Below are positions 3,615 through 55,940 of a DNA stretch of 64,000 bases, one piece after another. Below the pieces are notes generated by a model. The model was not told the DNA's origin. It ran no database searches and worked only from the letters and a program-made list of their open reading frames with translations. A program made the translations under genes and the position numbers. Origin of the DNA: Minisyncoccota bacterium (GTDB taxonomy: Bacteria > Patescibacteriota > Minisyncoccia > Phycocordibacterales > UBA9973); NCBI GenBank assembly GCA_041662205.1, contig JBAZSZ010000003.1:9772-73771 (forward strand), given 5' to 3'. The stretch's first letter is position 1; each line of letters opens with the position of its first letter.

Positions 3615-4184
3615 ATGAACAACACAATTTTTTTCTTTTTTTATAACTTAGCGTATCAATCAAATATCTTTGATAATATTGTTATTTTTTTAGCAGTGTA
3701 TTTTATATATATAGATATTTTTTTAGCAGGATTATATTTACTTTTTTATTACAAGATTTCATTTTCACAGAATTTTTTTCAACAATTTGTAAATAAATGG
3801 AGAGAATTTTCTTTTGTGATTTTATCAGTTGGTGTTACTTGGTTTTTTAATAAATTCATAGCAAAAATATTATTTTATGTATTTAGACCTTTTATAGTTT
3901 TTTCACAAGTACTTCCTCTTTTTCCAGAAACTGGATATGCTTTTCCTTCTGGGCATACGGCAGTCGCTTCAGCTTTGGCATTTTCTTTATTTTTTATAAA
4001 TAAAAAAGCAGGCCTGCCTGCGCAGGCAGGATATGTTTTTATGTTCTTTGCTTTGTTGATCGGGCTTGCTCGCGTTATCGCTGGAGTACATTTTCCGATT
4101 GATATTCTGGGTGGATTTTTCCTAGGGTTTCTCATGAGTTTCATTTTTAATTATATTTTTAATTCTTTTTCTAAAAAATTATGA
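3615..4184 (+). CDS. PAP2-family membrane phosphatase (undecaprenyl-PP phosphatase-like)
   Basis: PAP2 motifs PSGHT (FPSGHTAVAS) and SR...GVH..D (ARVIAGVHFPIDIL). Multiple TM segments. Confidence 0.7.
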   Translation: MNNTIFFFFYNLAYQSNIFDNIVIFLAVYFIYIDIFLAGLYLLFYYKISFSQNFFQQFVNKWREFSFVILSVGVTWFFNKFIAKILFYVFRPFIVFSQVLPLFPETGYAFPSGHTAVASALAFSLFFINKKAGLPAQAGYVFMFFALLIGLARVIAGVHFPIDILGGFFLGFLMSFIFNYIFNSFSKKL

Positions 4185-4789
4185 TTTTATCATTTATGGA
4201 AAGCCTGGGATTACTAGGTATTTTTTTTGTTGTGTTCGCCGAATCAGGACTTTTTTTCTGTTTCTTTTTTCCTGGAGGTTCTCTTTTGTTTAGCTCTGGT
4301 CTTTTGGCTTCAGTTGGATATTTTAATATTCTCTATTTATTTTTCGGATCCTTCTTGTTTGCTGTTTTAGGTGACAGTGTCGGATATTGGACAGGTAAAA
4401 AGTTTGGTCCAATAATTTTTTCTAAACCAAATTCTTTCTTTTTTAATAAAAATAATTTAGATAAAACTGCAAAGTTTTACGATAAATACGGTAAAAAAAC
4501 TATTGTCTTAGCACGTTTCGTTCCTATCGTGAGAACATTTGTTCCGATCATGGCTGGTGCGGGGAATATGAAATATGATAATTTTATTTCTTACAATATA
4601 TTGGGTGCTTTTTTGTGGACTGGTTCATTTATTCTAGGTGGATATTTTTTAGGTAATTCTGTTCCAAATATTAATCATTACATTTTACCGATAATAATAA
4701 TTATAGTAATTTTGTCTTTAGTGCCAATTATTGGTGATATTTTTATTAAAAAAATCATTTGCTTTTTTAATAAAAAGCGTATAGAATAG
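4181..4789 (+). CDS. DedA/SNARE-associated family membrane protein
   Basis: DedA-type signature (GxxGDSxGYWxGKKFG, LARFVPIVRTFVP). Start overlaps the PAP2 stop by 4 nt. Confidence 0.75.
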   Translation: MILSFMESLGLLGIFFVVFAESGLFFCFFFPGGSLLFSSGLLASVGYFNILYLFFGSFLFAVLGDSVGYWTGKKFGPIIFSKPNSFFFNKNNLDKTAKFYDKYGKKTIVLARFVPIVRTFVPIMAGAGNMKYDNFISYNILGAFLWTGSFILGGYFLGNSVPNINHYILPIIIIIVILSLVPIIGDIFIKKIICFFNKKRIE

Positions 4790-12980: not shown

Positions 12981-13053
12981 GTCGGCGTAGCTCAGTTAGT
13001 AGAGCACGGGACTCATAAGCCCGGGGTCGCAGGCGCACTCCCTGCCGCCGACA
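12981..13053 (+). tRNA. tRNA with CAT anticodon, three G:C pairs in the anticodon stem (initiator-like), atypical T-loop (cgcactc)
   Basis: Acceptor gtcggcg/cgccgac. D-arm tagctcagttagtagagca. Anticodon loop ctCATaa. T-stem gcagg/cctgc. Confidence 0.5.
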
Positions 13054-13075: not shown

Positions 13076-13149
13076 GCGGGCGTAGCTCAACTGGTTAGAG
13101 CGCATCCCTGTCACGGATGAGGTTGCCGGTTCAAGTCCGGTCGCTCGCG
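13076..13149 (+). tRNA. tRNA-Asp (GTC)
   Basis: Acceptor gcgggcg/cgctcgc. Anticodon stem catcc/ggatg with loop ctGTCac. T-arm gccgg-ttcaagt-ccggt. Confidence 0.8.
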
Positions 13150-13158
13150 CAAATTAAA

Positions 13159-13187
13159 AATACCGTAGCTTCTGCTACGGTATTTTT
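13159..13187. terminator. Hairpin plus T-run directly after tRNA-Asp (bidirectional)
   Basis: aaaataccgtag-cttctg-ctacggtattttt. Confidence 0.5.
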
Positions 13188-13320
13188 AATTCTAGCGCGA
13201 TGTAAGCAAGCAAACTGCTTTGCTTGCGTCCGGCTTGAACAGGCGGAGCCGTGTCGCAAAGCGACAGGCGAGCCCGGGGAGGAAGTTCTTAGGAGCAAAG
13301 GCGACTTAGAAACTTGACCC

Positions 13321-13340
13321 CAAGTCCGGTCGCTCGCGCA
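13321..13340 (+). repeat. Exact 20-nt duplicate of the tRNA-Asp 3' end (caagtccggtcgctcgcgca), att-site-like
   Basis: Identical to 13132..13151, the T-loop-to-3'-end region of tRNA-Asp. Separated from the tRNA by a 170-bp GC-rich segment. Confidence 0.8.
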
Positions 13341-13482: not shown

Positions 13483-13704
13483 ATGAAAATATCAAAAATA
13501 ATGCACGTCGCTAGTGTTATCGTAGGGTTGGTTGGGATAGTTGTTTTTATTAAAACACTTGGAGTTCCGTCAGATGGGATGGTTTTCGGAATCACAAAAT
13601 TTGATGCGTTGTTCTGTATAGCAATTCTTTTTCTTATCGCTATTTGGAGCCAAGTTGGAACTATTCATCATATGATGCTTGAAAAAACAGGCGAGATTAT
13701 ATAA
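13483..13704 (+). CDS. Small hypothetical membrane protein (2 TM)
   Basis: 73-aa ORF with two hydrophobic helices. Confidence 0.4.
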   Translation: MKISKIMHVASVIVGLVGIVVFIKTLGVPSDGMVFGITKFDALFCIAILFLIAIWSQVGTIHHMMLEKTGEII

Positions 13705-13711
13705 AAATCAC

Positions 13712-13740
13712 TTGACATTTATACCCCATAGGGGTATAAC
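13712..13740 (+). promoter_or_regulatory. Sigma70-like promoter (TTGACA-N17-TATAAC) with the palindrome ATACCCcataGGGGTAT in its spacer (CsoR-type operator candidate)
   Basis: cttgacatttataccccataggggtataac. The palindrome ATACCC-N5-GGGTAT is the same as in the csoR-copA promoter at 51870..51898. Confidence 0.55.
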
Positions 13741-13812
13741 CAAAGCTGGGAGTAATTTTATTAGTCAATAAAATTATTAGACTTAATTAACAGCTAATTA
13801 AATTTTAATTAT

Positions 13813-14055
13813 ATGATGTATGGAATATATAATGGTTATGGAGGTTGGGGGAATATGATGGGTTATTTTGGAGGAGGAATTATGATGTTTTTATTTTGGG
13901 GAGCGATTATTTATTTTATTGTCTGGCTGGTTCGCAATAACAAAACAAATGGGGCAGATAGCAGTAAAAAGGCATTAGATATTTTAAAAGAAAGATATGC
14001 CAAAGGTGAGATAGATAAAAAAGAGTTTGAGGAAAAGAAGAAAGATTTAAGTTAA
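13813..14055 (+). CDS. SHOCT-domain membrane protein (Gly/Tyr-rich N-terminus, TM helix, C-terminal [22 protein letters not shown])
   Basis: C-terminal SHOCT motif. A paralog sits at 35401..35643 on the minus strand. Confidence 0.6.
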
Positions 14056-14061
14056 GTTATT

Positions 14062-14388
14062 ATGAAACTAGGAATGATTTTACAATCAAATAAACCAGAG
14101 CGTGTATGGAATACATTCCGTCTTGGAATTACTTCGCTTAAAGCTGGACATCAAGTAGAAATCTTTTTGATGAGCGAAGGTTCAGAATTAGATACAATTC
14201 CCGACACTAAGGATTTTGATATTTCCAAGAAAGTATTGGAGTTTAAAGAATTAAAAGGCAAGATTTATGCTTGTGGTAGTTGTCTTAAAATTCGTGGAAA
14301 GGAAGAAAGTAGTGTATGTCCAATTTCCACGATGTCCGACTTGCTCAAAATGGTTGAGAGTTCAGATAAATTATTAGTATTTGGATAA
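14062..14388 (+). CDS. DsrE/DsrF/TusD-like protein
   Basis: 108 aa. The conserved Cys sits in KIYACGSCLKIRG, as in DsrE-family sulfur-relay or redox proteins. Confidence 0.5.
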   Translation: MKLGMILQSNKPERVWNTFRLGITSLKAGHQVEIFLMSEGSELDTIPDTKDFDISKKVLEFKELKGKIYACGSCLKIRGKEESSVCPISTMSDLLKMVESSDKLLVFG

Positions 14389-14587
14389 AATTCCACTAAA
14401 CTGCAATTTACTCTTTCTGGATACATTTCTCTGGCTTTTTGTCTAAATTAGGTATAAAAATATAATCCTTATGATTGCGGATAGCGGTTCACACTTCGTT
14501 TACCAGTACGTGCAAATATTTTAGCCATTAAAATAAGGACCAAAAGTTCACGATTATGGTGGGCTTGATTTGTGATATAATTTTAGT

Positions 14588-16540: not shown

Positions 16541-17293
16541 TTGATGATTACATCATATATTTACGCATTGATTGCTGTTGTCATAGTCAGCTTGGTTTCA
16601 TTGGTTGGAGCTTTTTTTATTTCTATGAAAGAAGAACTGATAAAAAAGTATATTTTTTTGTTGGTTAGTTTGGCAGTGGGGGCTCTTTTAGGAGATGCCT
16701 TTATTCATTTAATACCGGAAGCATTTGAAAATTCTTTAAATCCTCTTTCTGTCAGCTTGTTTATTGTTGCGGGGATTATTTTATTTTTTGCATTAGAAAA
16801 GTTTATGCATTGGCATCATCATGGTGATGATACAGAAGAACACGATATTCACCCAGTAGGAAAACTTGTACTTTTTTCAGACGGTATTCATAATTTTATA
16901 GACGGAGTAATTATTGGGATAAGTTTTTTAGTAAGCGTTCCCATTGGTATTGCTACTACTTTGGCGGTCATCTTACACGAAATACCACAAGAGATAGGAG
17001 ATTTTGCAGTATTGTTGCACTCTGGATACACTAGAAAGCGAGCATTATGGCTTAATTTCCTATCCGCTTTAACAGCTATACTCGGAACTTTCTTAGCTTT
17101 TGTATTAGGAGAAACCAGTGAGAGCTTTACGAATTGGGTTCTACCGTTAGCAGCTGGAGGATTTATTTATATTGCAGTGGCAGATTTAATTCCAGAACTT
17201 CAAAAAACAAAAAAGGCGAGTTATTCTTTTTTTCAGTTGTTTTTCTTAATTATGGGAGTGATTTTAATGGTAGGCTTAGTTTTCTTAGAATAA
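16541..17293 (+). CDS. ZIP-family divalent metal (Zn/Fe) transporter
   Basis: ZIP signature HEIPQEIGDFAVLL, a His-rich loop (HWHHHGDDTEEHDIH) and 8 TM segments. Confidence 0.8.
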   Translation: MMITSYIYALIAVVIVSLVSLVGAFFISMKEELIKKYIFLLVSLAVGALLGDAFIHLIPEAFENSLNPLSVSLFIVAGIILFFALEKFMHWHHHGDDTEEHDIHPVGKLVLFSDGIHNFIDGVIIGISFLVSVPIGIATTLAVILHEIPQEIGDFAVLLHSGYTRKRALWLNFLSALTAILGTFLAFVLGETSESFTNWVLPLAAGGFIYIAVADLIPELQKTKKASYSFFQLFFLIMGVILMVGLVFLE

Positions 17294-19847: not shown

Positions 19848-20081
19848 ATGATTTTAATTGATGTAAGAACAAAGTATGAATATGATGCAGAGCATATAAA
19901 TGGCGCAATACTTCATGACATTATGGATATAATGCAAGGGATTTTTCCTAGTATAGATAAAAACGAAGAAATCACTTTATATTGTGAATCTGGTAATAGG
20001 TCTATGATGGCTAAAAATATGATGGAAAGAGCTGGCTTTACAAAAATAATGGACGCTGGGAGTATTGATAATCTAAGATAA
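19848..20081 (+). CDS. Single-domain rhodanese (sulfurtransferase)
   Basis: Active-site loop LYCESGNRS with the catalytic Cys. About 77 aa. Confidence 0.75.
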   Translation: MILIDVRTKYEYDAEHINGAILHDIMDIMQGIFPSIDKNEEITLYCESGNRSMMAKNMMERAGFTKIMDAGSIDNLR

Positions 20082-35400: not shown

Positions 35401-35643
35401 TTAATTACTTAAATCTTTCTTTTTGGCCTCAAATTCTTCTTTATTAATTTCTCCTTTTGCGTATCTCTCTTTTAGAATGTCTAGGGCATTATTATTTTTA
35501 CCCCCCATACATTCATGATGAAAAGGTGACTTGCCACCTCGAATTAGCCAAACAATAAAATAAATAACAGCAACCCAAAAAATAAACATAATTAATCCAC
35601 CCAAAATAGGACTACCCCAATTCCCATAATATCCATACATCAT
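35401..35643 (-). CDS. SHOCT-domain membrane protein (paralog of 13813..14055)
   Basis: Same architecture as its paralog. C-terminus [27 protein letters not shown] is nearly identical to the paralog. Confidence 0.6.
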   Translation of the reverse strand: MMYGYYGNWGSPILGGLIMFIFWVAVIYFIVWLIRGGKSPFHHECMGGKNNNALDILKERYAKGEINKEEFEAKKKDLSN

Positions 35644-45861: not shown

Positions 45862-46164
45862 AAAAAAATTCTGCTATTTTGAGCAGAATCTGAGAAACTT
45901 TCATTATAGGTAGAAATAAGGAAAGCTTATCCTGCTCGGGACACACATAAAATGATTGGTATTCGGGCTTGTTCCTTCCACCTTTTGGTGTTTAGGACTT
46001 ACCGTAGCGGCACTGCACTGGAATCTAACCAGTTTCCCCAATCACTTCTTTTAATTTTCAAGTTAACTCCTTTAGTATATACTTACATTATATTATGTCA
46101 AAGAAGAATGTGGATATTAAGAAAACAAGAAATCAAAAAAGGGCACAAACCCGCCAAAGGCGGG

Positions 46165-51869: not shown

Positions 51870-51898
51870 TTGACAAATACCCTACAGGGGTATATACT
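51870..51898 (+). promoter_or_regulatory. csoR-copA promoter: TTGACA, then ATACCCtacagGGGTAT palindrome, then -10
   Basis: acttgacaaataccctacaggggtatatact. Same ATACCC-N5-GGGTAT inverted repeat as at 13721..13737. Confidence 0.6.
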
Positions 51899-52171: not shown

Positions 52172-54478
52172 ATGCAAAAAGAAACATATCAAATAAAAGG
52201 AATGCATTGTGCTTCATGTGCCAGTATTATAGAAAAAACTGTTAAAAAAATTGATGGCGTGGAAGATATTTCAGTTTCTGCTGGGATGGAAAATGCTAAG
52301 GTGTCTTTCGATACTACGAAGACAAATCCGGCATCTTTTAATGAAAAATTAAAACCATTAGGTTATTCTTTTGTCATTCAACAAACTGCAAGCGAGATGG
52401 GAATGAGCGAAAGTGAACACGCAGCACATCTAGGACTTAGTCAAACAAAAAAAGAAAAATTGGAAGAATTAAAGGACATGCGAAATAAACTTCTCTCTCT
52501 CATTCCTATTGTTATCATAAGCATCTTCGTTATGAGTTATGATATTTTTGCAGAATTGAATTGGATATCCCCCATGTCTCTTATTTGGAAAAAGTTTTTT
52601 CATAACTTACTTCCTATATTGGCTACTTATACTTTGTTTGTGGTAGGCAAGCCGTATTTGCTTGGTTTGTATCGTTTCTTGCGTTACGGAAAAGCTAATA
52701 TGGATACTTTGATTGGTCTCGGCACCTCGGTAGCTATATTTTATAGTTTTATTCTGAGTGCTTTTGAAACAAGCCTGAAACCTTTTTTAAATGTTGATCA
52801 AAGTTATTATGATGTAGCTATTGTGGTTATTGCTTTTATTACTTTCGGTAAATATCTCGAGATCCGTTCAAAATTGAAAACCGGAGATGCTATTGAAAAA
52901 CTTTTAAATTTACAAGCAAAGACCGCTCTCGTCGTGAGAAATGGTCAGGAGATTGAAATTCCTATCGAGCAAGTAATTCACGGAGATTTGATCGTAGTAA
53001 AACCCGCAGGTAAAATTCCGGTGGATGGAATTGTGGTGACAGGTTTTTCTTATGTAGATGAATCGATGGTCACAGGCGAACCGATGCCAGTAGAAAAAAA
53101 AGAAGGAGATAGTGTGGTGTCTGGGACGATAAATACCTCGGGGTCTTTCACGTTTAAGGCGACAAAAGTAGGTGGGGAGACGCTCTTGGCGCATATTGTA
53201 AAAATGGTGGAGGAAGCGCAGAGTAGCAAGGCGCCCATCCAAGCATTGGCGGACAAAATCTCAAGTGTTTTTGTTCCTGTTGTTTTAGGTATAGCAGTTG
53301 TTGCTTTATTTTTATGGCTTATCATCGGTACGCAATACTTAGGATTTTCTCAAGCTCTTTCTTTTGGTTTAGTTTCTTTTGTGAGCATACTTATTATTGC
53401 TTGTCCGTGCGCACTCGGACTAGCGACTCCTACGGCTATCATCGTGGGCGTAGGAAAAGGAGCAAAAGAGGGGATTCTCATTAAAGATGCAGCAACTCTT
53501 CAAAAACTCTATGAAGTAAATACTGTCGTTGTGGATAAAACTGGAACCTTAACTTTTGGAAAACCAGAACTTGTTTCTGTAAATAATCTTACAAATAAAT
53601 CCGCAAATAAGACTGATAGTGAGCTCGTGGCTATCCTAGCTACTTTGGAAAATAAATCAGAGCATCCTATCGCGCATGCCATTATCGAATATGCTAAACA
53701 AAAAGAAATACAATTTTTTGATGTGCAGGGATTTGAAATTATAAAAGGTAAAGGTTTAAAAGGAATAGTGAACGGAGTAGAATATTTTGCTGGAAATACA
53801 AAATTAATTAAAGATTTGAATTTAGAATTTGATATAGAAGTATTGGAAAAAGAAACTTCAGAAGGTAAAACGCCAATTATTCTTGCGGATAAAAATAATG
53901 TGCTTGGTGTTTTTATGATAGCTGATACGATAAAACCTGAAGCCATAGAAGCAGTGAAAAATTTACATAAACTCGGTATAAAGGTTGTAATGCTTTCGGG
54001 TGATAATAAAAATACAGCGGAATATATTTCCAAGCTTATAGGTATTGACGAAGTGGTGGCAGAGTCTATGCCCGAGGATAAATTAAATAAAATAAAAGAA
54101 CTTCAAGCGGAGGGCTACATCGTAGCAATGGCGGGAGACGGTGTGAATGATGCCCCTGCTTTGGCTCAAGCAGATGTAGGCATAGCTATGGCTACAGGTA
54201 CAGATGTAGCGATAGAAAGCGCTGGGATTACTCTGCTTGGCGGAGATATTTCAAAGCTTGTCAAAGCAATAAATCTTTCCAAGATAACCATGCGAGGGAT
54301 AAAACAGAATCTTTTTTGGGCTTTTGTGTATAATATAGTAGGTATTCCTTTAGCTGCTGGATTATTTTATCCATTATTTGGTTGGTTATTAAATCCAGTA
54401 TTTGCAGGGTTTGCGATGGCAATGTCGAGTGTGTCAGTAGTCGGGAATTCACTTCGTATTAAAAGTAAAAAAATATAA
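52172..54478 (+). CDS. copA: Copper-translocating P1B-type ATPase
   Basis: N-terminal HMA (GMHCASCAS), TM CPC motif, DKTGTLT phosphorylation site, [10 protein letters not shown] hinge. Confidence 0.9.
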
Positions 54479-54496: not shown

Positions 54497-55513
54497 ATGA
54501 AAAAATATACATTTCATGTTTCAGGAACTCATTGTGCATCTTGTAAAATCTTGATAGAAGATATTTTAAAAGAGCAGGATTTTGTTAAAGACGTTCAGGT
54601 AAATTTAAAAAAAGAAATTGTTGAAATAGAAACTGATAGTGATCAGAACCCTGAAGATCTGGCGCAAATTCTCACAAGTAAAACAATAGCAAATGGTTAT
54701 GCGATTTCAGTAGATAAAAAAGACTTGCCCGCTGTGGTAGGTGATGATAATGTGTTTTGGAAAGCATTACCTCTCGGACTTGCTTTTGTAGTGTTGTTTT
54801 TCTTACTACAAAAATCTGGTATTCTTAATTTGAGTTTTGGTAGTAGCATTACACCGACGACTAGTTTTTTGATTGGAATCATCGCCTCATTTTCTTCATG
54901 TCTTGCAGTCGTAGGTGGTTTGATATTATCATTATCAGCAAAAATAGCGAAAGATGATGATGGTAAAAATAAAAAACCTTTAATATTGTTTCATATGGGA
55001 AGATTGGTGAGCTTTGCTGTGCTTGGTGGATTGCTCGGAATTCTTGGAAAAGAAATAGGCGTTAGTTTTATTTTTTCCACGATACTTGGGTTACTAGCTT
55101 CAGTGGTGATGCTTTTACTTGGTATCAATTTACTTGGTATCTTTAAGAAAAATATTTTTACTTTACCGAGTAATCTATTTTCTTTTTTTAGAAAAATAGA
55201 ACATGCCACTCTTGCTCCTATTGTAGTAGGCATAGGAACCTTTTTCTTGCCTTGCGGTTTTACGCAGGCGATGCAAATTACAGCGCTTTCCAGCGGATCA
55301 TTTATCTCAGGGATGTTTATTATGTTTTCATTTGCTCTTGGTACATTGCCAGTATTAGCATTGTTGTCGTTTAGTTCAGTATCATTCGCTCATTCTAAAT
55401 ATGCACCACTTTTCTTCAAATCAGCCGGAGTAGTAGTAATTGTTCTTGCTTTGTTCAATCTTATTAATAGCTTGGTGGTTCTTGGTCTTATTCCACCCAT
55501 ATTTAACTTCTAG
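54497..55513 (+). CDS. HMA-domain protein fused to a CcdA/DsbD-like (DsbD_2/TauE-type) polytopic membrane domain
   Basis: N-terminal GTHCASCKILIED metal-binding fold, then 6-8 TM helices with Cys pairs (FSSCLAV, LPCGF). Confidence 0.5.
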   Translation: MKKYTFHVSGTHCASCKILIEDILKEQDFVKDVQVNLKKEIVEIETDSDQNPEDLAQILTSKTIANGYAISVDKKDLPAVVGDDNVFWKALPLGLAFVVLFFLLQKSGILNLSFGSSITPTTSFLIGIIASFSSCLAVVGGLILSLSAKIAKDDDGKNKKPLILFHMGRLVSFAVLGGLLGILGKEIGVSFIFSTILGLLASVVMLLLGINLLGIFKKNIFTLPSNLFSFFRKIEHATLAPIVVGIGTFFLPCGFTQAMQITALSSGSFISGMFIMFSFALGTLPVLALLSFSSVSFAHSKYAPLFFKSAGVVVIVLALFNLINSLVVLGLIPPIFNF

Positions 55514-55550: not shown

Positions 55551-55940
55551 ATGAAAAACATTTCAATTTCAATTTTAGTAGCCTTAGTACTTATAGCCGT
55601 TGCTTTTTTGATTGCGAAAGGAGGAGATAGAACTCCTTTACCCAATGGCGAAAACAATGTTTCTGTGGTTGAGGAGAGACAGATTATAGATCTTACTGCA
55701 GTGGGAGGTTATTCTCCGGAAAAAAGTATTGCTAAAGCTGGTATCCCCACTGTCTTACGATTTACCACAAATGGAACATTCGATTGTTCATCATCAGTGC
55801 GAATTCCGTCTATGAATGTGAGTAAAAATTTAGCACCTGCAGGAATTACTGAGATAGACTTAGGGATTCCGAAAGTTGGAATTTTACAAGGAAGTTGTGG
55901 TATGGGAATGTATCCATTCGAAATTGATTTTCAAAATTAA
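55551..55940 (+). CDS. Small exported cupredoxin-like protein (C...C..M: GSCGMGMYPFEI)
   Basis: TM/signal region, then a beta-rich domain with Cys/Met ligand candidates. Last gene of the cop operon. Start taken at MKNISIS. Confidence 0.4.
   Translation: MKNISISILVALVLIAVAFLIAKGGDRTPLPNGENNVSVVEERQIIDLTAVGGYSPEKSIAKAGIPTVLRFTTNGTFDCSSSVRIPSMNVSKNLAPAGITEIDLGIPKVGILQGSCGMGMYPFEIDFQN

Follow-up and report, generated by a model that had tools for sequence, protein, structure and literature searches.

A predicted CsoR-family operator shared by a SHOCT-dsrE gene pair and the csoR-copA operon in a Patescibacteria genome

We analysed a stretch of 64,000 nucleotides from the Minisyncoccota bacterium contig JBAZSZ010000003.1 (hereafter the window), in which a gene for a small SHOCT-domain membrane protein and a gene for a DsrE-fold protein (dsrE) lie downstream of a promoter carrying a candidate operator for a repressor of the CsoR family. 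Direct reading of positions 13712-13740 gave TTGACA-ttt-ATACCCCATAGGGGTAT-aac. The TTGACA-associated ATACCC-N5-GGGTAT inverted repeat (the box) that an initial annotation had reported there thus reads as claimed, and Pfam confirmed the SHOCT and DsrE-like genes that it had placed downstream. The site is a perfect 8-3-8 palindrome, TATACCCC-ATA-GGGGTATA (13720-13738). The dsrE start codon follows the SHOCT stop codon after a gap of only 6 nt, and the two genes are therefore taken to be co-transcribed. A promoter/terminator scanner detected no terminator between them, the nearest terminator-like site being at 14544-14566, and reading of the window revealed no plausible promoter for dsrE within this gap or in the 3′-terminal part of the preceding SHOCT gene.

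Exactly two copies of ATACCC-N5-GGGTAT are present in the window (13721-13737 and 51877-51893), where zero are expected by chance, and the exact motif was absent from all 100 dinucleotide-preserving shuffles. No further site with two mismatches or fewer was found in the 64 kb, and a relaxed search of the window for TACC-N-GGTA returned a single additional match, which lacks the G-tract and lies inside an open reading frame (ORF). The motif is therefore not frequent at the scale of the window, the point that the initial annotation had singled out for checking. The second copy occupies the promoter of the csoR-copA operon, 38 kb away, for which the gene calls were confirmed by Pfam. That promoter had been described as carrying an identical repeat in the same position. 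The half-sites are indeed identical, but the centers of the boxes differ (CCCC-ATA-GGGG at the SHOCT promoter versus CCC-TACA-GGGG at the csoR promoter), and the position is shifted by 2 bp, the gap between the -35 element and the box being 3 nt at the SHOCT promoter and 1 nt at the csoR promoter. At both promoters, the -35 and -10 elements are separated by 17 nt and the -10 overlaps the 3′ arm of the box. A recent origin of the SHOCT promoter by copying of the csoR promoter was considered and rejected, the identity being limited to ACTTGACA plus the box.

Operators of the type-2 CsoR class bind two apo-CsoR tetramers per site, which are released by Cu(I). The class has been defined experimentally in Streptomyces by the consensus ATATACCCCTNAGGGGTATAT, in which ATACCC and GGGTAT are most conserved and the TAC-N9-GTA dyad is essential (PMC3902906). 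The site upstream of SHOCT-dsrE contains this dyad (13722-13736, TAC-CCCATAGGG-GTA) and has split G/C tracts within an AT-rich inverted repeat (TATA-CCCC-ATA-GGGG-TATA), thereby fitting the consensus. It also overlaps the core promoter, with the box located between TTGACA and the predicted -10, a layout kept in the seven promoters compared below.

The repressor encoded in the window belongs to PF02583, and its alignment revealed the ligand set Tyr-Cys ... His-x3-Cys (Y-C ... H-L-G-S-C), which corresponds to the x-C-H-C fingerprint, without an N-terminal His. In a family-wide analysis of CsoR proteins, this fingerprint combined with a copA neighbor identified Cu(I) sensors (PMC8643695), and here copA starts 4 nt after csoR. 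The best NCBIfam match of the repressor was copper-sensing RicR, below the cut-off. The x-C-x-C fingerprint of the persulfide sensor CstR is not present, since the His is kept, and the genes that follow the SHOCT-dsrE operator do not form a CstR-type target set, since they comprise only SHOCT and dsrE, the latter encoding the sole sulfur-type fold there. A tblastn search of the 64-kb window (E ≤ 10) returned no CsoR-family gene other than csoR itself.

Because the closest relatives of the SHOCT-DsrE pair lack the box (see below), metagenome contigs were scanned with a pattern combining ATACCC-N5-GGGTAT, 55-85 nt, and ATGATGTAYGG. The scan revealed six operator-SHOCT loci, five of them distinct (L093 and L095 are near-duplicates), in which SHOCT is the first gene after the operator and its product is 60-89% identical to the SHOCT protein of the window. 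All six display the same succession of TTGA(C/T)A, 1-4 nt, ATACCCC-N3-GGGGTAT overlapping the -10, a leader of ~70 nt, and the SHOCT gene. In an alignment of seven promoters (A3), 14 of the 14 positions of the box arms are invariant, while the three central nucleotides and the leader vary; the -10 position is occupied by TATCAT, TATACT, or TATCCT in the relatives and by TATATA in L092. Locus L096 is orthologous to the window locus, with the same 73-aa ORF, box, SHOCT, and DsrE. Elsewhere, the gene following box-SHOCT varies and may be DsrE, DUF302, DUF3105, or nothing: L093 and L095 contain box-SHOCT-DUF3105 and then ArsR-rhodanese, L094 contains ArsR-glutaredoxin-box-SHOCT-DUF3105, and L091 contains GlpM-like-box-SHOCT. 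The gene order in L092 is DsbD_TM-redoxin-box-SHOCT-DUF302-second box-HMA_DsbD_2, the second box being located 700 nt from the first, in a canonical promoter (TTGACA-t-box-ATAAT, with TATAAT as the -10) that precedes the gene for a fusion of a metal-binding HMA domain to DsbD_2. These sequence comparisons are good evidence that selection keeps the box and the SHOCT gene together and that the predicted regulator of the box also serves a metal-binding gene, the HMA-DsbD_2 gene of L092. The existence of orthologous promoters in other genomes indicates that the operator-SHOCT arrangement is old. The features of the window that bear on this comparison are collected in Table 1.

Table 1. Promoter elements, operators, and genes of the two loci in the window
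Feature	Positions	Strand	Basis
-35 TTGACA of the SHOCT-dsrE promoter	13712..13717	+	Direct reading; TTGACA in 6/7 promoters of alignment A3, TTGATA in L095
Type-2 CsoR-family operator (predicted)	13720..13738	unstranded	Core 13721-13737; one of 2 exact matches in the window; arms invariant in 7 promoters
Probable -10 TATAAC	13735..13740	+	Direct reading; first three bases within the operator
Leader hairpin AATTTTATT-AGTC-AATAAAATT in the 5′ untranslated region	13766..13787	+	Between the operator and the SHOCT start; pairing in alignment A3
SHOCT gene, 80 aa	13813..14055	+	PF09851, 34.7 bits (cut-off 27), residues 54-79; C-terminal motif of ~28 residues
dsrE gene, 108 aa, DsrE-fold	14062..14388	+	PF02635, 35.5 bits (cut-off 22.7)
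csoR promoter	51870..51898	+	-35 TTGACA 51870-51875; operator ATACCCTACAGGGGTAT 51877-51893; -10 TATACT 51893-51898
csoR, 87 aa	51905..52168	+	PF02583, 90.5 bits
copA, P1B-1-type ATPase	52172..54478	+	N-terminal HMA; CPC, YN-x4-P, and M-x2-SS motifs (Pfam and motif reading)
HMA-DsbD_2 fusion membrane protein, next after copA	54497..55513	+	Pfam
Cupredoxin-like protein, after HMA-DsbD_2	55554..55940	+	PF13473, 31.9 bits

The SHOCT protein is composed of a Met/Gly/Tyr-rich N-terminal tail, one hydrophobic segment, a basic stretch, and the C-terminal SHOCT domain. The DsrE protein is a member of PF02635 predicted to adopt the α/β fold of DsrE and YchN. Its AlphaFold model has a predicted local distance difference test (pLDDT) score of 83.5, with one of the five models being confident and the cysteine region (residues 71 to 90) being the weakest. 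Foldseek matched the model to 1jx7 (template modeling [TM] score, 0.82), 3pnx, 2fb6, 2qs7, and 3mc3, with TM scores of 0.69-0.82. Single-sequence and profile searches against solved structures returned nothing meaningful, and comparison to NCBIfam revealed only a faint similarity to the C terminus of YedF. Among its relatives, the C71-x-x-C74 pair is invariant and C86 is conserved in 93%. No second DsrE-family gene that could provide a relay partner of the DsrF/DsrH or TusB/TusC type adjoins dsrE in the window or in most of the loci.

In the leader, the predicted hairpin (loop TAGTC) is paired in 84% of the cells of alignment A3 versus 40-56% in slid controls, and four pairs are changed on both sides, corresponding to modest covariation. 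Its folding energy was no better than that of shuffled sequences (z = -0.37), and no Rfam match was found. Upstream of the SHOCT promoter lies a 73-aa hydrophobic ORF (13483-13704) that is preceded by promoter-like sequence and stops 7 nt short of the -35 element; its conservation in L096 is 90%, and it has no Pfam or NCBIfam match. Since no terminator separates this ORF from the SHOCT promoter, read-through into the operator is possible.

We consider it rather probable that the palindrome upstream of SHOCT-dsrE is a type-2 CsoR-family operator, that its repressor is most likely the CsoR of the window, and that the operon is induced by copper. The proposal of the initial annotation that a distant gene pair shares a CsoR-type operator is thus supported by the rarity of the motif, by the published features of such operators, and by the comparative loci, all of which are properties of sequence; the binding of CsoR, the induction by copper, and whatever biochemical roles the two proteins may have are inferred. 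SHOCT-dsrE appears on these grounds to be a real second target of CsoR, which is probably copper responsive. In the proposed mechanism, a sigma-70-type promoter (13712-13717/13735-13740) would drive the two-gene operon, and CsoR would autoregulate csoR-copA-HMA/DsbD_2-cupredoxin from a nearly identical promoter/operator 38 kb away. At low copper, apo-CsoR tetramers bound to the spacer and the -10 would block RNA polymerase at both operators. The filling of the Cys-His-Cys site by Cu(I) would lead the repressor to leave both operators, thereby inducing SHOCT-DsrE jointly with the copper pump operon. The release mechanism extrapolated here is the established one (PMC3902906, PMC8643695). The conserved, selected unit is the promoter, operator, leader, and SHOCT gene, with DsrE being one of several interchangeable passengers (DsrE, DUF302, and DUF3105).

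Several findings weigh against this reading or restrict its reach. The -10 of the window (TATAAC) ends in C, and the SHOCT-dsrE promoter was not listed by the consensus scanner because of this last base. The six metagenome loci were selected by the pattern itself and therefore establish that the arrangement exists and is conserved rather than how frequent it is; they also share homologous promoters and leaders and are therefore not independent inventions. Further adverse observations come from loci chosen through DsrE. More than 1000 relatives of this protein were found, the best 120 of which have identities of 83-94% and names spanning many lineages of the candidate phyla radiation (CPR), and 80 genome loci were fetched (L001-L080, with DsrE near position 4001 in most). 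In these 80 loci, the box (≤1 mismatch) was not found upstream of DsrE and occurred only at csoR promoters (L046, L055, L063, and L066, with an additional one-mismatch site at the edge of L014), where the layout is that of the window, namely TTGAC(A/T), 1-4 nt, and the box, with an overlapping -10. The notion of DsrE as a conserved CsoR target was rejected on this basis, and the conserved target is therefore SHOCT, not DsrE. The closest SHOCT-DsrE relatives (L067, L087, L004, and L081-L086) also lack the box and have instead a promoter of the TGnTAAAAT type; their SHOCT proteins are ~88-91% identical to that of the window where measured (L004 and L067). Control by CsoR is therefore not a general property of DsrE genes, most of which look like independent cassettes. 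In cultured haloarchaea and in Bacillus mycoides, members of the DsrE subfamily adjoin ArsR, rhodanese-like, methyltransferase, DUF302, and MFS genes, not cop genes. Finally, the inspection for repressor paralogs covers 64 kb, and the operator alone does not identify the signal, since the same box serves copper- and persulfide-sensing members of the family.

The neighborhoods of DsrE nevertheless include copper genes in a subset of the loci. A cop-type gene was located within 4 kb of DsrE in about 8 of the 80 loci, against a chance baseline of ~1% that is a rough estimate (single cop operon in a ~1-Mb genome) and not a computed control. The gene orders comprise csoR-DUF5676-SHOCT-DsrE-ATPase (L049), box-csoR-DsrE-ATPase (L066), copA-HMA_DsbD_2-cupredoxin-SHOCT-DsrE (L004), and DsrE-HMA_DsbD_2-cupredoxin (L020). 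In L046 and L055, DsrE is directly upstream of box-csoR-copA, and in L081-L086, which contain the nearest DsrE relative (94% identical), the order is CDF-HMA_DsbD_2-cupredoxin-x-SHOCT-DsrE. Homologues of the HMA-DsbD_2 protein adjoin SHOCT or DsrE in L004, L020, L046, L081-L086, and L092, and cupredoxin homologues accompany HMA-DsbD_2 and SHOCT-DsrE in L004, L020, and L081-L086. The lineage of the window looks like one in which such an operon was split and the SHOCT-dsrE part kept its own operator. The most common neighbors of DsrE in the 80 loci are SHOCT-domain proteins (39), followed by ArsR (9) and XRE (6).

Other observations on the DsrE loci concern the genes themselves. DsrE identity is 80-94% across many CPR lineages and 45-50% in DPANN archaea (L001-L080). 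In the same set, a tRNA gene was found at most 400 nt upstream of DsrE in 16 of 57 cases, and in 41 of 57 the DsrE ATG is preceded by a TAnnnT hexamer ending 5-9 nt away (e.g., GTAAAATAATTTT-ATG), a count obtained in AT-rich DNA and without a chance control; the hexamer is sometimes located just 3′ of a terminator hairpin. This suggests that DsrE is a horizontally spread, self-contained, and possibly leaderless cassette. In L055, a 44-aa ORF between DsrE and box-csoR (4375-4508) encodes MMWNWGQGMMSWGGFGF plus one hydrophobic segment; its similarity is to the N-terminal half of the SHOCT protein, and the SHOCT domain itself is absent. The P1B-type ATPases beside csoR-DsrE in L049 (4383-6620) and L066 (4651-6834) may represent an unusual metal-site variant: their transmembrane metal site contains CPD in place of CPC, their N-terminal domain has the pattern YTCPMHPE...CPxCGM, and the CsoR proteins accompanying them are of the x-C-H-H type. 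DsrE-family genes 43-48% identical to that of the window are also present on large plasmids of Bacillus mycoides, Natrinema zhouii, and Haloferax larsenii (L097-L099). Their neighbors encode an ArsR/SmtB regulator and an MFS transporter in the Bacillus plasmid and comprise rhodanese-like, DUF302, S-adenosylmethionine-methyltransferase, and multicopper oxidase genes in the haloarchaeal plasmids.

The operator could instead be bound by a CstR-like, persulfide-sensing x-C-x-C paralog encoded outside the window, which would make SHOCT-DsrE an operon for reactive sulfur species. The core of the CstR (cst) operator of Streptococcus mitis, ATACCCTTATGGGGTAT, is identical to the motif found here (PMC8643695), and the CsoR-family repressor YrkD of Bacillus licheniformis controls a cluster containing yrkE, a DsrE homologue (PMC9918477). 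The DsrE/YchN sulfur-carrier fold of the dsrE product would fit such a sensor, as would the proximity of haloarchaeal plasmid DsrE homologues to rhodanese-like and cysteine-desulfurase-like genes and that of ArsR-rhodanese just downstream of box-SHOCT-DUF3105 in L093 and L095. However, all of the CsoR-family genes found beside SHOCT or DsrE encode the copper-sensor fingerprints x-C-H-C or x-C-H-H, none x-C-x-C, and they mostly adjoin genes for P1B ATPases; the box of L092 also fronts the gene with a metal-binding HMA domain; and no genes for sqr, persulfide dioxygenase, TauE, or TusA were present in the examined loci. Unlike the repressors of CstR/YrkD clusters, that of the window retains the His of the Cu(I) site and sits with copA, its gene is the sole member of the CsoR family in the 64 kb, and the SHOCT-dsrE operon lacks sqr, pdo, TusA, and TauE. 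In addition, the DsrE protein of the window is a short CxxC form (108 aa) that is structurally closest to YchN and only 15% identical to the 160-aa DsrE-like protein 3pnx. The nearest rhodanese gene of the window (19848-20081) lies 5.5 kb from the operon, both boxes being elsewhere (13721 and 51877). We therefore regard control by a persulfide sensor as unlikely. The rhodanese itself is a stand-alone, single-domain protein of 77 aa without an ArsR neighbor and shares 87% identity with the rhodanese encoded after ArsR near box-SHOCT-DUF3105 in L093.

Alternatively, the same CsoR could bind the operator with only SHOCT being a meaningful target, DsrE being a recently captured cassette of unrelated function, related to soft metalloids or sulfur, that is simply read through. 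The variable partner after box-SHOCT (DsrE, DUF302, DUF3105, or nothing) would be expected in this case, and the DsrE identities within the CPR and in DPANN archaea, the frequent proximity of tRNA genes, the -10-like element of its own, and the presence of DsrE elsewhere with ArsR, XRE, methyltransferase, or MFS genes also point in this direction. Yet DsrE recurs inside csoR/copA/HMA-DsbD_2 operons with and without SHOCT (L066, L046, L055, and L020), and the dsrE gene of the window has no plausible promoter of its own. On balance, a purely incidental DsrE seems quite unlikely. Finally, it is very improbable that the palindrome, instead of being an operator, is an inverted repeat formed by chance or acts in RNA as a hairpin that ends or stabilizes the transcript of the 73-aa ORF. 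Although it starts 16 nt past the stop codon of that ORF and could form an 8-bp G/C-rich stem, no U-tract is present on its 3′ side, zero exact matches would be expected by chance, its arms are identical to those at the csoR promoter, and the box keeps with TTGACA and SHOCT despite differing upstream genes (GlpM-like, redoxin, glutaredoxin, or none).

Regulation of SHOCT-dsrE by the CsoR of the window would resemble the multi-operator CsoR regulons of Gram-positive bacteria, such as that of Streptomyces lividans, with sites at csoR, copZA1, and copZA2, and the operators of the CsoR proteins of Staphylococcus aureus, Listeria monocytogenes, and Bacillus subtilis. The operator type is shared (ATACCC-N5-GGGTAT, TAC-N9-GTA, and split G/C tracts; PMC3902906), and one autoregulated x-C-H-C repressor encoded beside copA is likewise associated with several dispersed sites. 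In contrast to these regulons, in which the additional targets are of the copZ/copA type, the target here encodes a SHOCT membrane protein and a DsrE-fold protein. Compared with the DsrE/YchN/TusD sulfur carriers (PF02635), the DsrE protein shares the Pfam family and the predicted fold without a sequence match to solved structures. Unlike the genes of the DsrEFH and TusBCD systems, dsrE occurs without DsrF/DsrH or TusB/TusC, and it encodes an invariant CxxC plus a third Cys and is found in metal-related contexts.

The nearest precedent for the gene neighborhood is provided by the copper fitness islands of Thermoplasmatales and ARMAN archaea, in which SHOCT and DUF302 genes lie beside genes for a copper ATPase, a chaperone, and a regulator (PMC5498576). 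This SHOCT-DUF302 pairing matches that of L092 and of the archaeal loci L069-L076. The regulator of the islands is of the Lrp/AsnC type, not CsoR, and the adjacency was noted without description of an operator (PMC5498576). A SHOCT gene of Haloferax is induced by silver (PMC10694973), and the original description of the SHOCT domain contains no mention of copper, DsrE, DUF302, or operon context (PMC3581485). The literature that we searched holds no prior description of a link between CsoR and SHOCT, DsrE, or DUF302 or of a CsoR regulon in Patescibacteria. Dispersed CsoR operators under a single autoregulated repressor are already well known; what is new is the target in Patescibacteria, namely a SHOCT membrane protein accompanied by DsrE, DUF302, or DUF3105 as passengers.

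Signal peptides are present in the longer SHOCT proteins that accompany DsrE, as are stretches rich in Met and His, for example AMNAMMIQAHGE and MPMMQMMMGGW. We take these stretches to resemble the Met motifs that bind Cu(I) or Ag(I). Our guess, which we hold with low confidence, is that Cu(I), or thiols and sulfur damaged by copper, are handled by the outer tail of the SHOCT protein, which is rich in Met and Gly, and by the site that the CxxC motif and the additional Cys of DsrE form. The DsrE-fold protein might serve to carry or buffer Cu(I), to carry persulfide, or to act as a thiol-disulfide partner for the DsbD_2 protein. Pointing in the same direction, a module on an Arthrobacter plasmid combines analogues of CcdA/DsbD with a protein of the DsrE/DsrF type (PMC6305408). 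More tentatively, the operator-leader-SHOCT unit and the leaderless-looking DsrE(CxxC) cassette might constitute a hitherto unrecognized, horizontally mobile module for tolerance to soft metals (Cu(I), perhaps Ag or As) or to thiol stress in CPR bacteria and DPANN archaea. The local sensor (CsoR, ArsR, or XRE) would wire the module in, the extracytoplasmic Met/Gly/His-rich segments of SHOCT would bind Cu(I), and DsrE would act as a cytosolic carrier of Cu(I) or persulfide in place of the missing CopZ. We think this scheme doubtful, if worth stating.

Several further features of the window were noted. The initial annotation had proposed a scattered metal-homeostasis theme comprising a ZIP transporter, a second SHOCT paralog, and DUF1059. 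The ZIP gene call (16541-17293) was confirmed by Pfam, and the second SHOCT paralog (35401-35643) is real and lies beside DUF1059 and Lipoprotein_15; it is on the minus strand with no upstream box. As the ZIP, second SHOCT, and DUF1059 genes all lack the box, the theme is only loosely relevant. A 189-bp insertion (13152-13340) follows the gene for tRNA-Asp and ends in an exact repeat of the 20-bp 3′ end of this tRNA, CAAGTCCGGTCGCTCGCGCA, the two copies of which (13132-13151 and 13321-13340) compare with zero expected by chance. The insert contains an AT-rich hairpin and ~130 bp of unusually GC-rich sequence, has no counterpart in the orthologous locus L096, and resembles a scar or remnant left by an element that had integrated into the tRNA. 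Between the tRNA-Met and tRNA-Asp genes, Rfam detected a third tRNA (12981-13053; 54 bits) with the anticodon loop CTCATAA, which was not reported by ARAGORN. A match to the cobalamin riboswitch is present on the minus strand at 45937-46087 (40.9 bits versus an Rfam gathering score of 31.5).

SHOCT is a very widespread domain for which we know of no function, and we likewise know of no characterization of short CxxC DsrE-fold proteins. Patescibacteria can rarely be cultivated. The plasmid-bearing cultured hosts of L097-L099 are experimentally tractable entry points to the DsrE subfamily, and the conserved, predicted CsoR operator provides a concrete and testable condition, copper, under which the SHOCT and DsrE proteins may be studied. 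For the organism, the arrangement would mean that a minimal genome keeps a regulon together after its operon has been split, because the operator travels with the gene.

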